From: a virus
DNA: 64,000 bases
Strand: one strand, 5' to 3'
Virus record (IMG/VR): IMGVR_UViG_3300011113_000664
Coordinates: 32,001 to 96,000 of that record
Shown: positions 16,184 to 38,380 of the stretch, in pieces
Layout: each line of letters begins with the position of its first letter
How positions within the stretch are numbered: position 1 is the first letter of the stretch
The notes under the pieces: model-generated
What the model was told of the DNA's origin: nothing
What the model saw: only the letters and a program-made list of their open reading frames with translations
Databases searched by the model: none
Translations under genes and position numbers: made by a program

Positions 16184-16274
16184 TTGGTAGGATGGGATTT
16201 GAACCCATATCATTGTTGAGCCTCTTTTCTAAAGTTTTTTTGAGTCAACCGCTTCGCCATTCAGCCACCTACCA
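16184..16274 (-). ncRNA. tRNA-like RNA with 25-nt anticodon loop
   Basis: Acceptor TGGTAGG/CCTACCA, D arm GCT/AGC, stem GTTGA/TCAAC, T arm ATGGG-TTCAAAT-CCCAT. Confidence 0.7.
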
Positions 16275-16277
16275 ATT

Positions 16278-16386
16278 TGCTTGTCTTTCCAAGCGGTCAT
16301 CTGTTTTCCCCTATTAGCCCAAATCATCAAAGGGGTATGAAATGGATTTTGTTTGGTGCTTTCGCTTTCCACAGAAAACCAACACA
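16278..16386 (-). ncRNA. Structured intergenic RNA candidate
   Basis: GC-GAAA-GC, CCCCT/AGGGG and GCTTG-GAAAGA-CAAGC hairpins between tRNA-like genes. Confidence 0.45.
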
Positions 16387-16387
16387 G

Positions 16388-16485
16388 TAGCCTCGCTAGG
16401 AATCGAACCTAGAAGAATTGCTTCTCTCTCCATTCCTCAGAATGGAATGAGAAGGCAATCAGTATATCCATTTACTTACAAGGCC
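16388..16485 (-). ncRNA. tRNA-like RNA with anticodon arm extended into a long hairpin
   Basis: Acceptor GGCCTTG/CGAGGCT, D arm AGTA/TACT, T arm CTAGG-TTCGATT-CCTAG; 43-nt arm in anticodon position. Confidence 0.75.
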
Positions 16486-16490
16486 ATTAG

Positions 16491-16574
16491 TATCAGGAGA
16501 GGGAGTCGAACCCTCACGGCATTGCTGCCAATGGATTTTAAGTCCATAGTGTCTACCTATTCCACCATCCCGAC
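16491..16574 (-). tRNA. trnL: tRNA-Leu(UAA), no encoded CCA
   Basis: Full cloverleaf, ATGGA-CTTAAAA-TCCAT, long variable arm, GTTCGA T loop; TATATTTG promoter at 16592-16599. Confidence 0.92.
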
Positions 16575-16637
16575 ATATTGTTTTCACAATTCAAATATAA
16601 GACTTTTTTTTGATTCTAACTATTTAAAGAAAAAAAG

Positions 16638-16979
16638 ATGAAAAAAGTTTTAGTTACTGAATCTCAATTAAGAACAATGGTTCGTAAAATGTTAATGGAA
16701 CAACCTGCAATGGGTGGTACACCTGTTGGTGGTACAGGATTTGCAGGAACTTCAAGTTTAACAACTAATGCTGCTAAACAATCTACCACATTACAATCTC
16801 AAAGAAATAAACAACAACAAACTACGTTATCAAATGTTAAAAACCTTAATCAACTTAACGGTCAGTTTTTAAACTTAATGAATGGTGTTAGTAAAGATAC
16901 ACTTGGTCCTGGAAAAATGACTAAACAAACTTTGATTACTAATTTTGGTAAATTACTTACAGATTTAGGTTATAAGTAA
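16638..16979 (+). CDS. Leader-cargo protein (diverged leader MKKVLVTESQLRTMVRKMLME)
   Basis: Shared leader; late motif ACTATTTAAA 16619-16628. Confidence 0.8.
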   Translation: MKKVLVTESQLRTMVRKMLMEQPAMGGTPVGGTGFAGTSSLTTNAAKQSTTLQSQRNKQQQTTLSNVKNLNQLNGQFLNLMNGVSKDTLGPGKMTKQTLITNFGKLLTDLGYK

Positions 16980-17647
16980 TCAAAACTATGACCATTATGG
17001 ACAAATGGTAGATTTTCCCCATCCTTAACGCAGGATACATTTGCAAATATTGTTTTATATTCTACAAATTTAAATGTACCATTATTTAGATTATCTTGAT
17101 TATCATGGATATGACCAAATATGTGATATTTAGGTTGTATCTTTAATACTCTTTTAAGTAATGCAGAACAACCTACATGTTCACTTACATGTCTATCTCT
17201 TGATGCGGAATCTAATATACCTTTAGGAGGACCGTGTGTAATTAAAATATCAATATCATCAGGTATTGTATCCCAAATTCTTCCAATTTTATTTCTTGCA
17301 CGATTAAATGCCCAATTACAAAACTCAGGAGTATAAGGAGAACCAAATATTTTAATTCCTTCTATCTCAACTAATTCATGTTCAAGATAAATAATATTTC
17401 TATTTTTAAAATCTTCTTTGTTAATGAATCTACTTTCAATAGAAGTATCATGATTACCTGCAATAATCACTTTATATTTAACAGGTTGTTGTTCTAACCA
17501 AATTAAAAATAAATTAACTTCATTATGATTTAATGCAGGACTTTTTACATTTGAAAAATCTCCTGCATGAATAATCATATCCGTACCTTCAGGTATTTGA
17601 ACCTGCTCATGTCTTCCATGAGTGTCTGAGACTGCAAAAATTTTCAT
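16970..17647 (-). CDS. Calcineurin-like metallophosphoesterase
   Basis: SDTH, HAGD, AGNHD, THGPP, FGHIH; leaderless after TATATTTG. Confidence 0.92.
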   Translation of the reverse strand: MKIFAVSDTHGRHEQVQIPEGTDMIIHAGDFSNVKSPALNHNEVNLFLIWLEQQPVKYKVIIAGNHDTSIESRFINKEDFKNRNIIYLEHELVEIEGIKIFGSPYTPEFCNWAFNRARNKIGRIWDTIPDDIDILITHGPPKGILDSASRDRHVSEHVGCSALLKRVLKIQPKYHIFGHIHDNQDNLNNGTFKFVEYKTIFANVSCVKDGENLPFVHNGHSFDYL

Positions 17648-17690
17648 AAAGCAAATATAACTTAACTATTTATAAAAAAATAAAGTTTTC

Positions 17691-17933
17691 ATGAAAAAAG
17701 TAAGAATTACAGAATCTCAATTAAGAGGATTGGTTAGAAGAATGATTAAAGAAGAAAGATATCCAAATATGTGGTATGATAATTTATTAGGTGTAGAAAA
17801 TTTAAATAAATATCCACAAGATTTTATTGATTGGTTAAATCAAGAAGATACTTGGGCTGAGACTTATGTTCAAAAATACAGAATAAAAAAACTTATAGAT
17901 TTATTTGATATGTGGGTTAATGAAAGATATTAA
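17691..17933 (+). CDS. Leader-cargo protein 1
   Basis: MKKVRITESQLRGLVRRMIKEE plus unique cargo; ACTATTTATA at 17665. Confidence 0.85.
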   Translation: MKKVRITESQLRGLVRRMIKEERYPNMWYDNLLGVENLNKYPQDFIDWLNQEDTWAETYVQKYRIKKLIDLFDMWVNERY

Positions 17934-17938
17934 ACCAT

Positions 17939-18001
17939 TTAAAACGGATTACCAATATACTCAACAACTTCATGAGTATCTGAGATTGCAAAGATTTTCA
18001 T
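17939..18001 (-). other. Duplication-junction chimeric mini-ORF MKIFAISDTHEVVEYIGNPF
   Basis: In-frame fusion of phosphoesterase N-terminus and PcfJ-like C-terminus; retains TATATTTG promoter. Confidence 0.8.
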
Positions 18002-18042
18002 AATGCAAATATAAATTAACTATTTATAAAAAAGAAATTTTT

Positions 18043-18627
18043 ATGAAAAAAGTAAGAATTACAGAATCTCAATTAAGAGGATTGGTTAAGAAAATGATTA
18101 AAGAAAATGTAGAAACATCAAGTATACCCACAATAATTAAATATTATAACCAAAGCGATAATAATACACTTAAACAAAAAATATCAAATTATGGTAACTC
18201 AAGATTGCCTGAAAATCCTAATCATAAACAGTTATATGATTTTTTAAATAAAATTGGTGATAAGAATAAATTAGAAATTATAAAAAAGATGTTAGAAAGG
18301 GATATTCAAAAGAAATCTATCACAGAATCTCAATTAAGAGGAATTGTTAAAAGAATGATTAAAGAAGAAATGTCTGAAGAAATATTAACTGAGGGAAATT
18401 GGTCAAAAATTATGAAAGGTGTAAGAAATGGGGAAGCCCCTTTTTCAATTATTGCATTTGAAAATAATTGGCCTAAACCAAAAATTTTAGGTCAAGAAAT
18501 TGGTATTCAAATTATTGATGCAATACCTGCTTATTATGAAGAAATGAAAAGAAAATATCCTAAAGCTAGTAAAATTTCTATTGAAGATGGGGGTGGGCAA
18601 GTTGTTTATGTAGAAAAACTTTATTAA
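18043..18627 (+). CDS. Leader-cargo protein 2 (two leader copies)
   Basis: Leader at N-terminus and internal KKSITESQLRGIVKRMIKEE. Confidence 0.85.
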   Translation: MKKVRITESQLRGLVKKMIKENVETSSIPTIIKYYNQSDNNTLKQKISNYGNSRLPENPNHKQLYDFLNKIGDKNKLEIIKKMLERDIQKKSITESQLRGIVKRMIKEEMSEEILTEGNWSKIMKGVRNGEAPFSIIAFENNWPKPKILGQEIGIQIIDAIPAYYEEMKRKYPKASKISIEDGGGQVVYVEKLY

Positions 18628-18686
18628 AACGGATTATCTAAATACTCAACAACTTCATGAGTATCTGAAATTGCAAAAATTTTCAT
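18624..18686 (-). other. Duplication-junction chimeric mini-ORF MKIFAISDTHEVVEYLDNPF
   Basis: Second copy of the same junction. Confidence 0.8.
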
Positions 18687-18729
18687 AATGCAAATATAAC
18701 TTAACTATTTATAAAAAAATAAATTTAAT

Positions 18730-19389
18730 ATGAAAAAAGTAAGAATTACAGAATCCCAATTAAAAGGATTGATTAGAAGAATGATTAAAGAAGAAACTAA
18801 AAAAAACTTAATAAGTGAAGTTTATTTTAGTGATACTGATAGAGCATATATAGGTAGAACTGATGCTTATTATTCAGATGAAGACGATGAATCGGTATAT
18901 TCACCTGATTATTGGACATATTCAACTGATATGAATGATAGTGATTTTGCACAAGATGGTGACCTTTATCAATTAAGTAATGCTGGTAAAGAAATTATTA
19001 ATTCTTGGTTGGAATATAAAGGGTACAATGAATACCAAAGAATGAACGCTAGAAGGAGTGGTGCATCTAATCCTATTATGAGTATGAGTAATGAACAATT
19101 GTGGGATTATTTAACAACAGACAGAAGATATTCAAAGCAACTTAGAAAGGGATATATTGGAGAAGAAATGGAAATGTCTCAAAAGCCTGAAAAATTTATG
19201 AGTTTAAAAATAAAAGGTAATAAAATTATGGCTCACGAACCTTATTTTGGAAAAGATACATGGGTTGCAAGCATATATCATGACCAAAAAAGAATTAAAC
19301 CTACTCATGGTTATTTCATGCCTCATAAATATGGCAAAATGAGTAAAAAATATGCCGATAGTATTGGTTATGAATTTGACAATAGTTAA
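18730..19389 (+). CDS. Leader-cargo protein 3
   Basis: MKKVRITESQLKGLIRRMIKEE plus unique cargo; ACTATTTATA at 18704. Confidence 0.85.
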   Translation: MKKVRITESQLKGLIRRMIKEETKKNLISEVYFSDTDRAYIGRTDAYYSDEDDESVYSPDYWTYSTDMNDSDFAQDGDLYQLSNAGKEIINSWLEYKGYNEYQRMNARRSGASNPIMSMSNEQLWDYLTTDRRYSKQLRKGYIGEEMEMSQKPEKFMSLKIKGNKIMAHEPYFGKDTWVASIYHDQKRIKPTHGYFMPHKYGKMSKKYADSIGYEFDNS

Positions 19390-31830: not shown

Positions 31831-34278
31831 TTAAACTAAGAATACTTTTTTACTTTCTGGTGAGTAAAGAAGTTTCTTGTTTAAAACCCTACTTTTAAAA
31901 TCTTCAGACAAAGTTTGACCCAAACCTTTATATATCAATTCTTTACAACCAACAAGTTTATTTTCATTGATTTTTTTCATTTCAATGACATTATTTGAAT
32001 CAAATATAACAGGTTTTTTTCTATTTTCATCATCAATATAATAAGATTGAATTTGATTTAAAATATTTTCTTCGCTAAGTACTGTAAATGAATTCTCTTT
32101 TAATACCTTATCTTCTTTCTTAACCGCAGGTAAATCTTTTTGGTTTAATACTGCTCTACCTCTTCCTGTGCCAAGTTTATTAGCATCTTTAAATTCATTT
32201 GCTTTATTGGCAGCATCATATGCTTCTTTACCTGAATCGGTATATGACATTAATTCTTTCTTTCTAGCCTCCCATTTAGCATTAGGTTCACCATTTGGTG
32301 CATTTTCAGGTTTAACATGTTCTAATCCTCTGTGAACTTTTTTAAGATATTCTTGTTGATGTTCAGATTGATAGTCATATTTTGGAATGTCTTTCTTTTC
32401 TAAAGAATCTTTATCATATACTAAACCATCACCTTCACCTTTTTGGACAAGCATAGTGGTTGTTTTTGTACTAGCATCTTTTTTATAGTAAGAATTAGAA
32501 TCATTTTTAGATTGATTTTTTAATGCATCAATTCTAATTAAAGCATCATGCTTTTTTTCTTCTTCTAATAAACCAAGTCTTTGAACTAATCTATTATAAT
32601 ATTCATTTAATGTTTTTAATGCTAAATTATCTAACTGTTTTCTGTTATATACTTCAGGCAATTCACGACCTTGGTGTTTTAAAATAAATTCACTTATACT
32701 ATCTCTATTATTTTCTCTGATTAATTCAATCTTAGGACTTTTAAATACATTACTAGGTGCGGATATCTTTTTGTATTCAACAATATCATCATTCATTAAA
32801 GCATCTAAATCAACTAAATTATAGTTTTCATTTACACCTTTTACACTTTTATTTGTGCCTGAATAATGTGTTTTAGTATTAACTTTAACACGACCTGCTT
32901 TATCAACTTTTACAGCACCTTTATTTTTCTTAAATGCAGGATTTGACCACCTACTATAAAAATCATCTAATGCACCTAAATCATTTTTTGGTTTTTCCCA
33001 CATATTTTGTTTTTTACCCTTAACCATTTCAACAAAACCTCTTGGTTTACCATCACCATAAACTTTATAATGAGGATTAGCAACAGGAAAATCTGCAATT
33101 GCAGCACTTGTTGTTGATTCATCAAGACTATCTTTTCTAACATATAATCTAAATACATTAGAACCTAAATTATCAATTTGATTACTTCTCCTAAAACCTA
33201 AATCATCATCTCCATCCATATCACCTAGCATAAAATTAGCATTACCAACTTCAGATACTACTCTTTGAGTAAATCTTTTTATTTTTTTTTCATCTTCATC
33301 ACTTAATCCACTATAATCACCATCAATTAAGGCAGGTATTGCCCATTCAGGCACTTCATAACCACGAAGACTATCATCCATTTCCTCATCAATCATTTCT
33401 TCCATTTTGCTTCCACAATATGCTTCATTGATTAATCCTGCCCAATTAGATTCATTTAAGTAATCTTCAACACCTAATTTTTTAAGTTTACTAGATTTAA
33501 CAACAACAACATCTTTTGGAGAAATATCAGAACCATAAACTTCAGATAAAACATTTAAAAAATATTCATTTTTATTTTCTTTTAATTCTTCTGAATCAAC
33601 ATTAGAATAGTCATATCCATAAAGAATATGATTTGTTTCTTTTAATAAAGCGAAATGAGAATAGTTATATTTTTGCCAATCTTTTTTATTTTCCTCATTT
33701 AATTGTCTTTTTTCTAAATTTTTAGAAGTTACAACAATTACATCATTCTCATTTAAAAAAGGATAATTTCTTTTAATATCTTTCACAAAAAACTCATTTT
33801 TATAATTTTTTAGTTCATCTTGTGTATATCCTTCATAATTCCAAGATTCTAAAATTTTATTAGTATTTTTGTTAATTGCAAAATGAGTTGAATTACTTTT
33901 ATTTTTCATGTTTTTCATTTTATTTTCTTTTAATTTTTTCTTAGTTTTTTTGAATTCATATCCCTTATTTATAGCATCTTTTATTTTCTTATACATTTCA
34001 AATAGTTTTTTATTACTTTTTACATATTTATGAAATAATAAAATGTTCAAGATTTCATTATAGTGATATCCTAATTTTTCTTGTGCATTAATAGATAGTG
34101 CATCATATTTATTTTTGAGAAAACCAACTTTGTCAACTAAAGCCTCCATTGCCTTTAAAGAAAAAGTTTTACGATTTTTAAATTCTCGTTTTTTCTTTTT
34201 CTGTGTAACACCTTTAACTCTAGTATCAACAGTCGTAGGTTGTACATTGGCTATAGGTTGCGCTTGTTGTTTTTCCAT
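31831..34278 (-). CDS. Large putative internal head protein with duplicated domain and many L/I-x-E sites
   Basis: Two HFA...Y....ELK..KNE.F repeats; PEWAIPALIDGDYSGLSDED module; late motif at 34291-34300. Confidence 0.7.
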   Translation of the reverse strand: MEKQQAQPIANVQPTTVDTRVKGVTQKKKKREFKNRKTFSLKAMEALVDKVGFLKNKYDALSINAQEKLGYHYNEILNILLFHKYVKSNKKLFEMYKKIKDAINKGYEFKKTKKKLKENKMKNMKNKSNSTHFAINKNTNKILESWNYEGYTQDELKNYKNEFFVKDIKRNYPFLNENDVIVVTSKNLEKRQLNEENKKDWQKYNYSHFALLKETNHILYGYDYSNVDSEELKENKNEYFLNVLSEVYGSDISPKDVVVVKSSKLKKLGVEDYLNESNWAGLINEAYCGSKMEEMIDEEMDDSLRGYEVPEWAIPALIDGDYSGLSDEDEKKIKRFTQRVVSEVGNANFMLGDMDGDDDLGFRRSNQIDNLGSNVFRLYVRKDSLDESTTSAAIADFPVANPHYKVYGDGKPRGFVEMVKGKKQNMWEKPKNDLGALDDFYSRWSNPAFKKNKGAVKVDKAGRVKVNTKTHYSGTNKSVKGVNENYNLVDLDALMNDDIVEYKKISAPSNVFKSPKIELIRENNRDSISEFILKHQGRELPEVYNRKQLDNLALKTLNEYYNRLVQRLGLLEEEKKHDALIRIDALKNQSKNDSNSYYKKDASTKTTTMLVQKGEGDGLVYDKDSLEKKDIPKYDYQSEHQQEYLKKVHRGLEHVKPENAPNGEPNAKWEARKKELMSYTDSGKEAYDAANKANEFKDANKLGTGRGRAVLNQKDLPAVKKEDKVLKENSFTVLSEENILNQIQSYYIDDENRKKPVIFDSNNVIEMKKINENKLVGCKELIYKGLGQTLSEDFKSRVLNKKLLYSPESKKVFLV

Positions 34279-35674: not shown

Positions 35675-38380
35675 ATGTATAAAATACGATTTATGTCAAA
35701 AAATTATTTATCGGATAAACTAAGAGCATTACCTTTCTATGATGAAGTAACAAGAGCAGGTGGTAAAATATATGCTGTTGGTGGACCTGTTAGAGATTTT
35801 ATTTTGGGTAAACAATCTAAAGATTTAGATATTATTGTTACAGGAATTGAATATGATTTATTGCAAGGTATTTTAGAAAACTATGGTAAGACTGATTTAG
35901 TTGGTAAATCATTTGGTATTATTAAATTTAAAGAAACACCGACTAGTGAAGAAATAGATGTTGCACTTCCTCGTACAGAAAAGAAAACAGGACAAGGTTA
36001 CCAAGGATTTGAAGTAACTGTTGACCCTAATATGTCAGTAGAGGATGAAATGAGAAGAAGAGATATTACCATTAATAGTTTAGCTATGGATGGTGATGGA
36101 AATATTATTGACCCATTTAATGCTCTTAATGATATAAAAAATAAAAATATTAAAGCAACATCAAATGAAAGTTTTTCGGAAGACCCATTAAGAATGTTGC
36201 GTGTTGTACAATTTGCAACAAGGTTTGGTTTTAACATTGATTCTCAAACAGAAGAAATGATTAGACAAAATGCAATGCTAATAGAAGAAATTTCTCCTGA
36301 AAGATATATTATTGAATTTGATAAAATAGTTTCAAAAGGTAACCCAACCCAAGGTGTTAAATTGCTTGTAGATTTAAATTTATTTGTACCAATATTTGGT
36401 TTTGTATATTCGGGTGATTTTAAAAACTTTGATAAAGTTAAGTCTATTGGTGAGTTTTTATATTTATGTACTTTTACACCTCAAAATTCAGCACAGAAAT
36501 TTTTTTTTGAAATTATTAAAAAAAGATTTGGTTCTGCATTAGCAGATAAGGTTAAAAAAGAAATTGAATCCTTAACAAATTTAAGTTTGTTTGGACAAGA
36601 CAAAGTTGAGAATCTTTTTACATTAATGAAGATGTATAAACTTTCTCCTGAAACAATACAAAATTCATTATTAATACCTAATGAATTAAAACAAATGGCT
36701 CAAAAATATCCAATGGATGTTAAACAACTTGATATTACAGGTATGGATATTATGGGATTAGGTTTTAAGGGTAAAGATATTGGTGATAAAATAATTGAAA
36801 TATTTAAAGCTATTTTTTCTGACCAAATACCAAATCAAAAACAATCAATAATTGATTATCTTAAAAAAAATAAACTAAATGAAAACGAATCAATGGAAAC
36901 ACCAAGAATAACATCATTTAGACAATTGGTTGAAAAATCACCAAAAGAATTAAAAGACATTTTATATTCAAACTGGCAAGCAAAACAAAATCCTAAATGG
37001 CATCCTGAAGGGAATACACTAAAACATATTATTGTTGTAACAAATAGAGCAATTAATAAACAACCATATAATATCAATTTGATATTAGCAGGTTATTTTC
37101 ATGATTTAGGTAAAATGGCGACTTATGAAATTTCACCTAAAACAGGACAACCAACTGCTTATGGGCATGAAGATGTATCTGCTGACTTAGTTAATAAATA
37201 TCAAGATTTTATTACTGAATTAGGTGGTAATCCTGAAGTGGTAAATTATATTGTAAAAAATCATATGAAAATGAAACCTACCACTTGGGATGTAATGAAA
37301 GATGCAAAGAAGGATGTTATAAAATCAAATCCTAGTTTTTCTGATTTAGAAACATTTTCAACAATTGATAAAGGTGGTTTAAATGAAAAACAAGAATTAA
37401 AAGGTGGTAAAGCAGACAAATTAACTTTGGGTAAAATTGCCGAAATACATAATATTAAAATTGAGAAATTAATACCTCAATTAAAATTAGGTATTAAGAC
37501 TGAAATGGAACATACTAATGATAAAAAACAAGCAAAGGAAATAGCATTAGACCATTTAGCTGAAAATCCAAAATACTATACAAAACTTAAAAAAGCAAAG
37601 TTAGAAGAAACTATTATTAATTCATTAAAAACATCTTTTATTGAATCTGAAAACATACCATCTAAATTAAAATCAGATGTTGAGATTGAATATCATAAAA
37701 GTTTAAATCCTTATTTCTGGTTAAACAATCATTTAAAAAGTAATATCAGAAAAAATCTTTTGAATCTTGGTAAATATTATTTTAAAAGTTTAGAATTAGA
37801 CCCAAAGGTAAAATTAAAAGATATAATTTTTACAGGTAGTTTAGCAAACTATAATTATACAGATTCATCTGATATTGACTTACATATTGTTATTGATTAT
37901 AAAGATGTGTCAGATGATGTTGATTTTGTAATGAATTATTTTTTACAAAAAAGGGCAGCATGGGAAGTATCAAATGATGTAAAGATTGGTAATTATCCTG
38001 TTGAGATATATGTTCAAGATATAAATGAACAAACTGTTGGTAAAAGTGCAATGTATTCAATACTTACTAATAAGTGGATTAAGAAACCAAAGTATAAATT
38101 ACCTGAAGTTGATAGGCATTTAGTTACACAAAAAGTTAATAAGTATTTAGATATCTTTAATAAGATATCAATGATGAAAGACTCATTAAAGAAGATTGAA
38201 AGTTATAATAAAGTACTTAAAAAGATTAAGAAAGAGCGTGGTGAAGCAACTCAAAAGGAAGGTGAATTTTCGGTAAATAATTTAGTTTTCAAAGTTTTAA
38301 GAAACAAAAAAGTATTTGATATCATTAAGGATGATAAAAAAGAAATAGTAAATAACGTATTTTCTATAAATTCTAACTAA
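35675..38380 (+). CDS. cca: Fusion: class II CCA-adding/poly(A) polymerase + HD domain + DUF5661-like + pol-beta-type nucleotidyltransferase
   Basis: VGGPVRD..DLD, RRDITIN, EDPLRMLR; HPEG...FHDLGK...GHE; GIKTEMEHT...IALDHLAENPKYY; TGSLANYNY...DIDLH. Confidence 0.85.
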   Translation: MYKIRFMSKNYLSDKLRALPFYDEVTRAGGKIYAVGGPVRDFILGKQSKDLDIIVTGIEYDLLQGILENYGKTDLVGKSFGIIKFKETPTSEEIDVALPRTEKKTGQGYQGFEVTVDPNMSVEDEMRRRDITINSLAMDGDGNIIDPFNALNDIKNKNIKATSNESFSEDPLRMLRVVQFATRFGFNIDSQTEEMIRQNAMLIEEISPERYIIEFDKIVSKGNPTQGVKLLVDLNLFVPIFGFVYSGDFKNFDKVKSIGEFLYLCTFTPQNSAQKFFFEIIKKRFGSALADKVKKEIESLTNLSLFGQDKVENLFTLMKMYKLSPETIQNSLLIPNELKQMAQKYPMDVKQLDITGMDIMGLGFKGKDIGDKIIEIFKAIFSDQIPNQKQSIIDYLKKNKLNENESMETPRITSFRQLVEKSPKELKDILYSNWQAKQNPKWHPEGNTLKHIIVVTNRAINKQPYNINLILAGYFHDLGKMATYEISPKTGQPTAYGHEDVSADLVNKYQDFITELGGNPEVVNYIVKNHMKMKPTTWDVMKDAKKDVIKSNPSFSDLETFSTIDKGGLNEKQELKGGKADKLTLGKIAEIHNIKIEKLIPQLKLGIKTEMEHTNDKKQAKEIALDHLAENPKYYTKLKKAKLEETIINSLKTSFIESENIPSKLKSDVEIEYHKSLNPYFWLNNHLKSNIRKNLLNLGKYYFKSLELDPKVKLKDIIFTGSLANYNYTDSSDIDLHIVIDYKDVSDDVDFVMNYFLQKRAAWEVSNDVKIGNYPVEIYVQDINEQTVGKSAMYSILTNKWIKKPKYKLPEVDRHLVTQKVNKYLDIFNKISMMKDSLKKIESYNKVLKKIKKERGEATQKEGEFSVNNLVFKVLRNKKVFDIIKDDKKEIVNNVFSINSN

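Follow-up and report, generated by a model that had tools for sequence, protein, structure and literature searches.

The window analysed here is the whole 64,000-nucleotide stretch (positions 32,001 to 96,000) of the virus record IMGVR_UViG_3300011113_000664, a 170-kb phage fragment, 52%-complete and with a GC content of 28%. A tRNA cluster is found on its minus strand. The first gene, an intact tRNA-Leu(UAA) (16490..16574), is located four bases upstream of the tRNA-shaped gene under study (16388-16485, minus strand), and the order tRNA-Leu then tRNA-Arg is the same in all relatives read. Ahead of the cluster, a TAnnTTTG motif (16592..16599, minus strand) is present in 9/9 relatives. We take this motif to be a -7 promoter element of the Bacteroidota type, and it is likely the promoter of the tRNA cluster; a sigma-70 promoter scan gave nothing on the minus strand. 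The best GenBank matches of the capsid protein are at 36-43% identity, cultured kin include Flavobacterium phage immuto (38%), and the capsid search found no complete close relative in GenBank. From the capsid kin and the TAnnTTTG motif, the host is likely a member of the Bacteroidota. On the plus strand, the window also carries several small unrelated ORFs with a common N-terminal leader having an ITESQL-type motif (16638-19389) and a phage tRNA nucleotidyltransferase of the CCA type (35675..38380; PHROG 2244, E 3e-69; PF01743, PF12627), which could finish the tRNA 3' end.

Downstream of the gene under study, the spacer (16275-16387, minus strand) contains small hairpins and is nearly identical in the related locus L011 and partly so in L008 and L393; its fold is no better than that of shuffled sequences (z -1.1). 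It is followed by another tRNA-like RNA (16184..16274, minus strand) made up of the acceptor and T half of a tRNA-Ile(UAU) and a swapped D/anticodon middle with a 25-nt loop. This RNA shares 9/10 5' and 25/27 3' bases with the tRNA-Ile(UAU) of the same slot in L010 and L011, a slot occupied by tRNA-Tyr in L393, and its middle is absent from every other fetched locus. The original prediction had described the two RNAs as a pair of anticodon-disabled mimics, which does not hold because the 16184 RNA is different in kind and is not a member of the intron family described below. Related phages also have many tRNA-like RNAs with a common acceptor/T-arm frame and highly variable middles (L006:3104-3204, L007:2104-2428, L014:8952-9250, L015:8247-8659, L053:853-976), which suggests cassette exchange between tRNA ends. 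Besides these RNAs, longer introns occur in the vicinity or in other genomes. In a sister phage, the tRNA-Leu(UAA) that adjoins a mini-intron tRNA-Arg carries a ~200-nt group-I-like intron at 34/35, below the RF00028 cut-off (L006:2593-2879). Group-I-like introns at 34/35 are also found in L365, L367, and L364, the latter with an endonuclease-like ORF. Others, of 236-284 nt, are located at 36/37 of tRNA-Arg(UCU) in Thiotrichaceae, Beggiatoaceae, and other Gammaproteobacteria (L456, L460, L461, L462, L471).

The 16388-16485 gene matches the tRNA family of Rfam (RF00005, 46.3 bits, E 1e-6). Its anticodon arm folds into a 5-bp anticodon stem, a bulged C32, 5 bp, an A/A mismatch, and 8 bp closed by a 4-nt loop. 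This reproduces the long hairpin of about 18 bp that had been noticed from the letters, with exactly 18 bp in total. The fold is unusually stable (z -4.3 for the whole gene and -4.8 for the arm; 0/200 shuffles equally stable), and the cloverleaf form lies 1.4 kcal/mol above the minimum free energy. The anticodon had been regarded as disabled. On the contrary, the loop reads C32-U33-U34-C35-U36, then 26 additional nucleotides (16424-16449), then A37-A38, and once the insert is taken out ARAGORN calls a tRNA-Arg(tct) with UCU in a 7-nt loop. On the minus strand, positions 1-36 form the 5' exon (16450..16485; anticodon UCU at 16452-16450; A20 in the D loop). The mini-intron (16424..16449) is a 10-bp hairpin with a 4-nt loop, the terminal AG of which pairs with C35-U36. 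Positions 37-73, in which the CCA is not encoded, form the 3' exon (16388..16423); both exons rest on the RF00005 match and ARAGORN. A20 is an arginine identity element of tRNA-Arg. The spliced gene is identical at 50/72 positions to the intronless gene of L015, and AGA accounts for 1198 of the 1633 arginine codons of the phage. Judged from its sequence, the gene is a tRNA-Arg(UCU) with a 26-nt insert between positions 36 and 37 and not a broken mimic. Two other parses were weighed. ARAGORN's native intron call (Leu UAG, 34/35) was rejected, since it conflicts with an arginine-type body having a short variable loop, and intronless orthologues are restored by the 36/37 parse alone. A 35/36 parse, which is less probable, would give Arg(UCG) in every family member and imply a blunt cut, and it does not restore the ancestral gene. 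Run with relaxed settings over the window's genome, ARAGORN returned noise.

The boundaries of the insert are set by relatives. In L001, L006, L007, and L010, the gene is identical to that of the window, while the adjoining DNA is only 72-92% identical. L011 carries the same 26-nt insert, letter for letter, in a quite different tRNA-Arg body, and the presence of one insert in two bodies implies a recent DNA transfer. After splicing, the L011 gene is identical to the intronless gene of L017 at 71/74 positions. In L225, from a phage whose capsid protein is 77% identical to that of the window phage, the slot behind tRNA-Leu is filled by an intronless version of the gene. The insert is missing exactly in L017, L225, and phage phiAS5, and its first and last bases allow no sliding of the boundaries. 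Hence, the insert is precise, its removal restores the gene, and it is present or absent among orthologues, as expected of a tRNA intron when genes are compared. A loose scan with an insert-only pattern gave chance matches and two already known loci, nothing else. In L010, a 188-aa ORF with an HNH-like motif directly follows the intron-bearing tRNA-Arg (L010:3825-4391, minus strand; no Pfam match); it is a candidate free-standing endonuclease of the kind involved in collaborative homing.

The insert belongs to a family. A first scan, in which the tRNA frame alone was fixed, gave two insert classes. Class 1 comprises ~25 distinct inserts of 15-43 nt from viral contigs (L255-L359) that start with A and parse at the canonical 37/38 position; they are presumably introns of eukaryotic (giant) viruses and served only as a control. 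Class 2 comprises 8 inserts with a pyrimidine start, all ending in AG, and two of the carriers are the cultured T4-like Aeromonas phages PX29 and Ah1. The insert is also found in Aeh1, avDM12, AsFcp, phiWae14, and Ahp1, while phiAS5 has the gene without it. Genome scans extended the family to Treponema, Chitinophagaceae, Clostridia, and lake MAGs, so that 19 distinct inserts of 26-43 nt are now counted in uncultured phages, cultured T4-like Aeromonas phages, and bacterial chromosomes or MAGs. The inserts probably share ancestry, and members are therefore not independent. In GenBank, the intron-bearing tRNA-Arg is labeled tRNA-Glu in Aeh1 (AY266303, 114904-115008; L380:6480-6584) and tRNA-Lys in PX29 (101163-101261), and it is unannotated in Ah1, avDM12, phiWae14, and Ahp1. 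The published tRNA list of Aeh1 contains no Arg(UCU) (Nolan, 2006, PMC1524935).

All members are built on the same geometry. The last two bases of every insert are AG and pair with C35-U36; five members came from a scan pattern that required this end, but the two 43-nt Treponema inserts, found later with the 3' end unconstrained, keep it although it was not imposed. The C35-G(-1) and U36-A(-2) pairs are predicted with p>=0.95 in 14/14 family arms vs. 1/21 control introns, the latter taken from the presumed eukaryotic-virus class. Because the terminal AG pairs with C35-U36, the two junctions lie on opposite strands of one helix, staggered so as to leave 2-nt 3' overhangs. In this register, 12 divergent inserts (mean stem identity 41%) form 105 pairs, vs. 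45-57 in the other registers and 49+-5 in shuffles. The covariation score, from a sequence-only alignment, is 0.71; none of 500 shuffles reaches it and slid controls stay at or below 0.19. The view of the original prediction that the pairing is under selection is borne out by both the register test and the covariation across homologues. The stems of the inserts contain 25 G-U vs. 8 A-C oppositions, an excess that points to an RNA made from the gene strand. In addition, the acceptor and T stems are 100% paired over 17 members with many compensatory changes, showing that the tRNA bodies are not decaying. No bulge-helix-bulge is present in any fold, the helix being continuous through both junctions. 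At the level of the aligned genes, a family geometry combining a 36/37 insert, AG pairing, and covarying stems is shown.

The main argument for removal of the insert comes from resident chromosomal genes. In Treponema G043 and G129, the intron gene is flanked by the V-ATPase K gene and a RelA/SpoT-like gene, and relatives have, at this locus, an intronless gene whose exons are identical. Searches of G043, G129, and the Chitinophagaceae MAG G045, all incomplete MAGs, revealed no intact tRNA-Arg(UCU), while the relatives with a match (31 and 41 genomes) have exactly one intronless copy each. The intron gene is the only AGA-reading tRNA detected in these Treponema and Chitinophagaceae carriers, and AGA is heavily used in the Treponema ones. 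In resident genes that are probably single-copy, the insert would have to be removed. The bacterial carriers are incomplete MAGs, and three of them, sampled from termite guts, are closely related. In G042, a mixed bin, two versions of the gene have the intron and a third lacks it; synteny is shown for G043 and G129. Taken together, these comparisons make it probable that the intron is removed and the exons are joined.

Which enzyme could cut at such junctions? Substrates of E. coli RNase III are reported to be cut so as to leave 2-nt 3' overhangs, to be paired at the central positions, with a G-C among them, and to follow an 11-nt ruler; the D position, an A-U, is paired more often than any other, and the J position, at a distance of 11 nt from the cleavage site, is a G (Altuvia et al., PMC6212723). 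The family shows the same central pairing and stagger (14/14 arms vs. 1/21 controls, and the register test). Position +3 is the sole position paired in 17/17 members; it is A-U, U-A, or U-G in 16 of them, with U-G in the window copy. A G is found at -11 in 11/12 divergent members. With the cleavage-site consensus of E. coli RNase III, as quoted in PMC4357697, 61/84 positions of the 12 divergent inserts match in the predicted register, which had been set from geometry ahead of the consensus look-up, vs. 11-41 in 12 other registers. The null expectation is 29 (p about 1e-4, by column permutation keeping relatedness). The match is 7/7 in PX29 and in Ahp1 and 6/7 in Aeh1. The two 43-nt Treponema inserts match at 4/7 positions each and keep A(-12)G(-11) despite loops ~15 nt longer, which indicates that the ruler is counted from the junction.

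The fit is uneven within the family. In E. coli letters, the window copy matches the consensus at 1/7 positions at the 3' junction and 4/7 at the 5' junction, with its geometry kept, and the Chitinophagaceae insert matches at 2/7. Both copies are linked to Bacteroidota, and another specificity of the host RNase III is a possible explanation. In the half-site formed by the tRNA, D' falls on the C32 bulge and is followed by the C31-G39 pair, where the E. coli enzyme prefers A-U; this disfavours that enzyme. As for the requirement of a ~22-bp helix with A-U pairs at both D positions, the intron side fits, and the tRNA side would need stacking on the D stem. No RNase III gene was found in Aeh1, G171, or the window's record, so that the cutter would be that of the host. 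Overall, RNase III is somewhat favoured as the cutter of the family as a whole; for the divergent copy of the window, its involvement is a little more doubtful than an even chance.

Cleavage by RNase III produces 5'-phosphate and 3'-OH ends, a substrate for ATP-dependent ligases and not for RtcB (PMC3400036). Among the complete carrier phages, 5/5 have Rnl1 and a PF09414 ligase, which is Rnl2-like in PX29, and 0/5 have RtcB. Rnl1 and Rnl2 are also present in the intronless phiAS5, and ligases in T4-like phages therefore say little. In bacteria, a PF09414 ligase is present in 4/4 MAGs with a chromosomal copy (G042, G043, G045, G129) vs. 17/60 and 7/60 relatives; it is of the DRB0094 type in those checked. 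DRB0094-type ligases seal nicks in duplexes, an activity ill-suited to the closure of a loop. RtcB is the only ligase of G044 and is absent from G043. No Rnl1, Rnl2, RtcB, or RNase III was found in the window's record or in its fragmentary relatives; the record being a 52%-complete fragment, a missing ligase shows no true absence there. T4 gp57B, encoded beside the Aeh1 gene and called "RNA ligase" in RefSeq, is Acb1 by Pfam and was left out of the evidence. Two gene arrangements were observed along the way. In two termite-gut Treponema genomes, a DRB0094-type ligase gene is found two genes away from rnc, the RNase III gene, and is separated from it by a YbjN gene (L429:463-2685, L430:1-2019); the pair forms one operon in L430, an intronless genome, is convergent in L429, a carrier, and was not found within 1.5 kb in L473 and L474. 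In the Chitinophagaceae carrier, an RNA ligase gene is followed by five tRNA genes and then by RtcB, as in an RNA-repair-like locus (L431:1039-3083 and L433).

These data lead us to propose the following route. In the precursor, the insert, the anticodon stem, and the stacked D stem would form a helix of roughly two turns. Cleavage by the host RNase III, or by a relative, would fall after U36 on one strand and before A37 on the other; the products would have 3'-OH and 5'-phosphate termini and 3' overhangs of 2 nt. The anticodon loop would next be closed, with no end healing, by an ATP-dependent RNA ligase, either phage Rnl1/Rnl2 or a bacterial DRB0094-type enzyme. Finally, a CCA enzyme would complete the tRNA. 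The original prediction had these RNAs possibly matured by a phage CCA enzyme; such an enzyme is indeed encoded, and the gene of the window, which lacks CCA, would need one. The mature tRNA would read AGA, the main arginine codon of the phage. We consider the chances evenly balanced that the gene is a functional tRNA-Arg(UCU) with a protein-spliced mini-intron, excised by RNase III and followed by ligation. The general form of the model, a third way of tRNA splicing in bacteria and phages in which RNase III excises a 26-43-nt anticodon-loop hairpin and an ATP-dependent RNA ligase seals the exons, is put forward more tentatively, as slightly less than an even bet.

Splicing could also be carried out by another nuclease, either a hypothetical helix-cutting enzyme of the host or phage or an anticodon nuclease, coupled to repair, for example by Pnk with Rnl1 or by RtcB. 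The exact boundaries and the need to splice apply equally to such a route, which would also account for the poor consensus match of the window copy and for the C32 bulge, and the repair of anticodon breaks by T4 Pnk and Rnl1 is established (PMC3400036). However, it leaves unexplained why the RNase III consensus is matched in the predicted register. Moreover, no fold has a bulge-helix-bulge, and RtcB was found neither in the complete carrier phages nor in G043. We regard it as unlikely, though the most plausible of the alternatives. Less plausible still is the reading initially favoured, an unspliced tRNA mimic acting as a decoy for anticodon nucleases, synthetases, or uncharged-tRNA sensors. 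What stands of it is the stable and conserved hairpin; moreover, the phage could borrow the tRNA-Arg of its host, no ligase was found in the window's fragment, and related phages have further odd tRNA-like RNAs. Nevertheless, a decoy needs neither a fixed 2-nt stagger, nor an intact UCU-AA loop, nor a consensus anchored at the junctions. Nor can it explain exact intron-like boundaries or the resident single-copy genes of Treponema, where the intron-bearing copy is the sole tRNA-Arg(UCU) detected on an AGA-heavy chromosome, and its partner RNA at 16184 is not conserved. Hence, this reading is judged the weaker one.

The insert might also be what is left of a mobile cassette, or it might shield the gene from homing endonucleases or integrases directed at the anticodon. 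In that case, a cut by RNase III is possible, but the halves would be left unjoined and the gene would be dead or work nicked. RNase III does remove intervening sequences from rRNA without ligation, and both the recent transfer implied by the identical insert in two tRNA bodies and the HNH-like ORF directly downstream of the intron gene in L010 (a motif recognized by eye, with no Pfam match) would fit. The tRNA bodies, with fully paired acceptor and T stems in the 17 members, argue against dead genes, as does the need of the Treponema carriers for an AGA decoder, and we hold this explanation to be improbable. Lastly, the insert follows a U and ends in G, as would a group I intron that lacks a core and depends on a ribozyme from another locus for splicing in trans. 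Full-length group-I-like introns are indeed found at 36/37 in Thiotrichaceae and Beggiatoaceae and at 34/35 in other bacteria, and L006 has one in the adjoining tRNA-Leu. However, U36 pairs with A and not with G, and a U-G P1 helix is impossible in 11/17 inserts. RF00028 has no match in the window's record, and 26 nt cannot house a P3-P9 core. No core was found in the carriers by a search that is itself insensitive, RF00028 missing tRNA introns at the cut-off and the motif catching 1/2 positive controls; none has been reported in Aeh1 (Nolan, 2006, PMC1524935). Trans-splicing of this kind is very improbable.

RNase III excision followed by ligation, our preferred reading, has to be placed among known systems. 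The tRNA introns of Lak megaphages were called "enigmatic" (Devoto et al., 2019, PMC6784885, Table S6), and tRNA introns of jumbo phages have also been described (PMC13037316). Like these, the present inserts are conserved, interrupt the anticodon loop of phage tRNA genes near 36/37, and are present or absent among relatives. However, Lak inserts are about 80-115 nt long and tRNA-shaped, whereas the family inserts are plain hairpins of 26-43 nt with a fixed AG end and a 2-nt stagger and are also chromosomal; compared with the Table S6 sequences, the nested acceptor/T-arm module of the Lak type is absent from the window insert. With RNase III substrates and excised rRNA intervening sequences, the family shares a 10-12 bp hairpin past the cut, a 2-nt 3' overhang, and family-wide pair preferences. 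Known RNase III products are, in contrast, not religated and do not occur in tRNA, while the mini-intron ends must be joined, and the window copy is off-consensus. Archaeal and eukaryal introns, removed by EndA or TSEN with RtcB or Trl1, are likewise short, located in the anticodon loop, paired with the anticodon, and dependent on an endonuclease and a ligase. They differ in their position (37/38 and not 36/37), in the bulge-helix-bulge, which the family lacks, and in the ends, predicted here to be 5'-P and 3'-OH; moreover, the complete carrier phages have no RtcB. Finally, bacterial group I tRNA introns (Azoarcus tRNA-Ile, cyanobacterial tRNA-Leu; PMC3984707) also interrupt the anticodon loop, with a U before and a G at the end, but the mini-introns have neither a catalytic core nor a U-G P1 helix and are one tenth the length.

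In bacteria, tRNA introns are held to be solely self-splicing group I introns (PMC3400036). In the open-access literature, to which the search was largely confined, we found neither this hairpin family nor any tRNA splicing that depends on RNase III. As far as sequence goes, this is a new form of tRNA intron; it would also represent a new splicing route if the model with RNase III and a ligase holds, to which we give somewhat less than an even chance. If the model is false, the genes remain a conserved, mis-annotated class. The mechanism proposed for the mini-introns is concrete enough to be tested with purchased RNase III and T4 RNA ligase, a phage long in culture providing the substrate. If it is true, there would be grounds to re-annotate many phage pseudo-tRNAs, and orphan ligases of the Rnl2/DRB0094 type would gain a natural substrate. 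Some bacteria would then obtain their only tRNA-Arg(UCU) through a cut by RNase III coupled to ligation, and protein-driven tRNA splicing would exist in bacteria.
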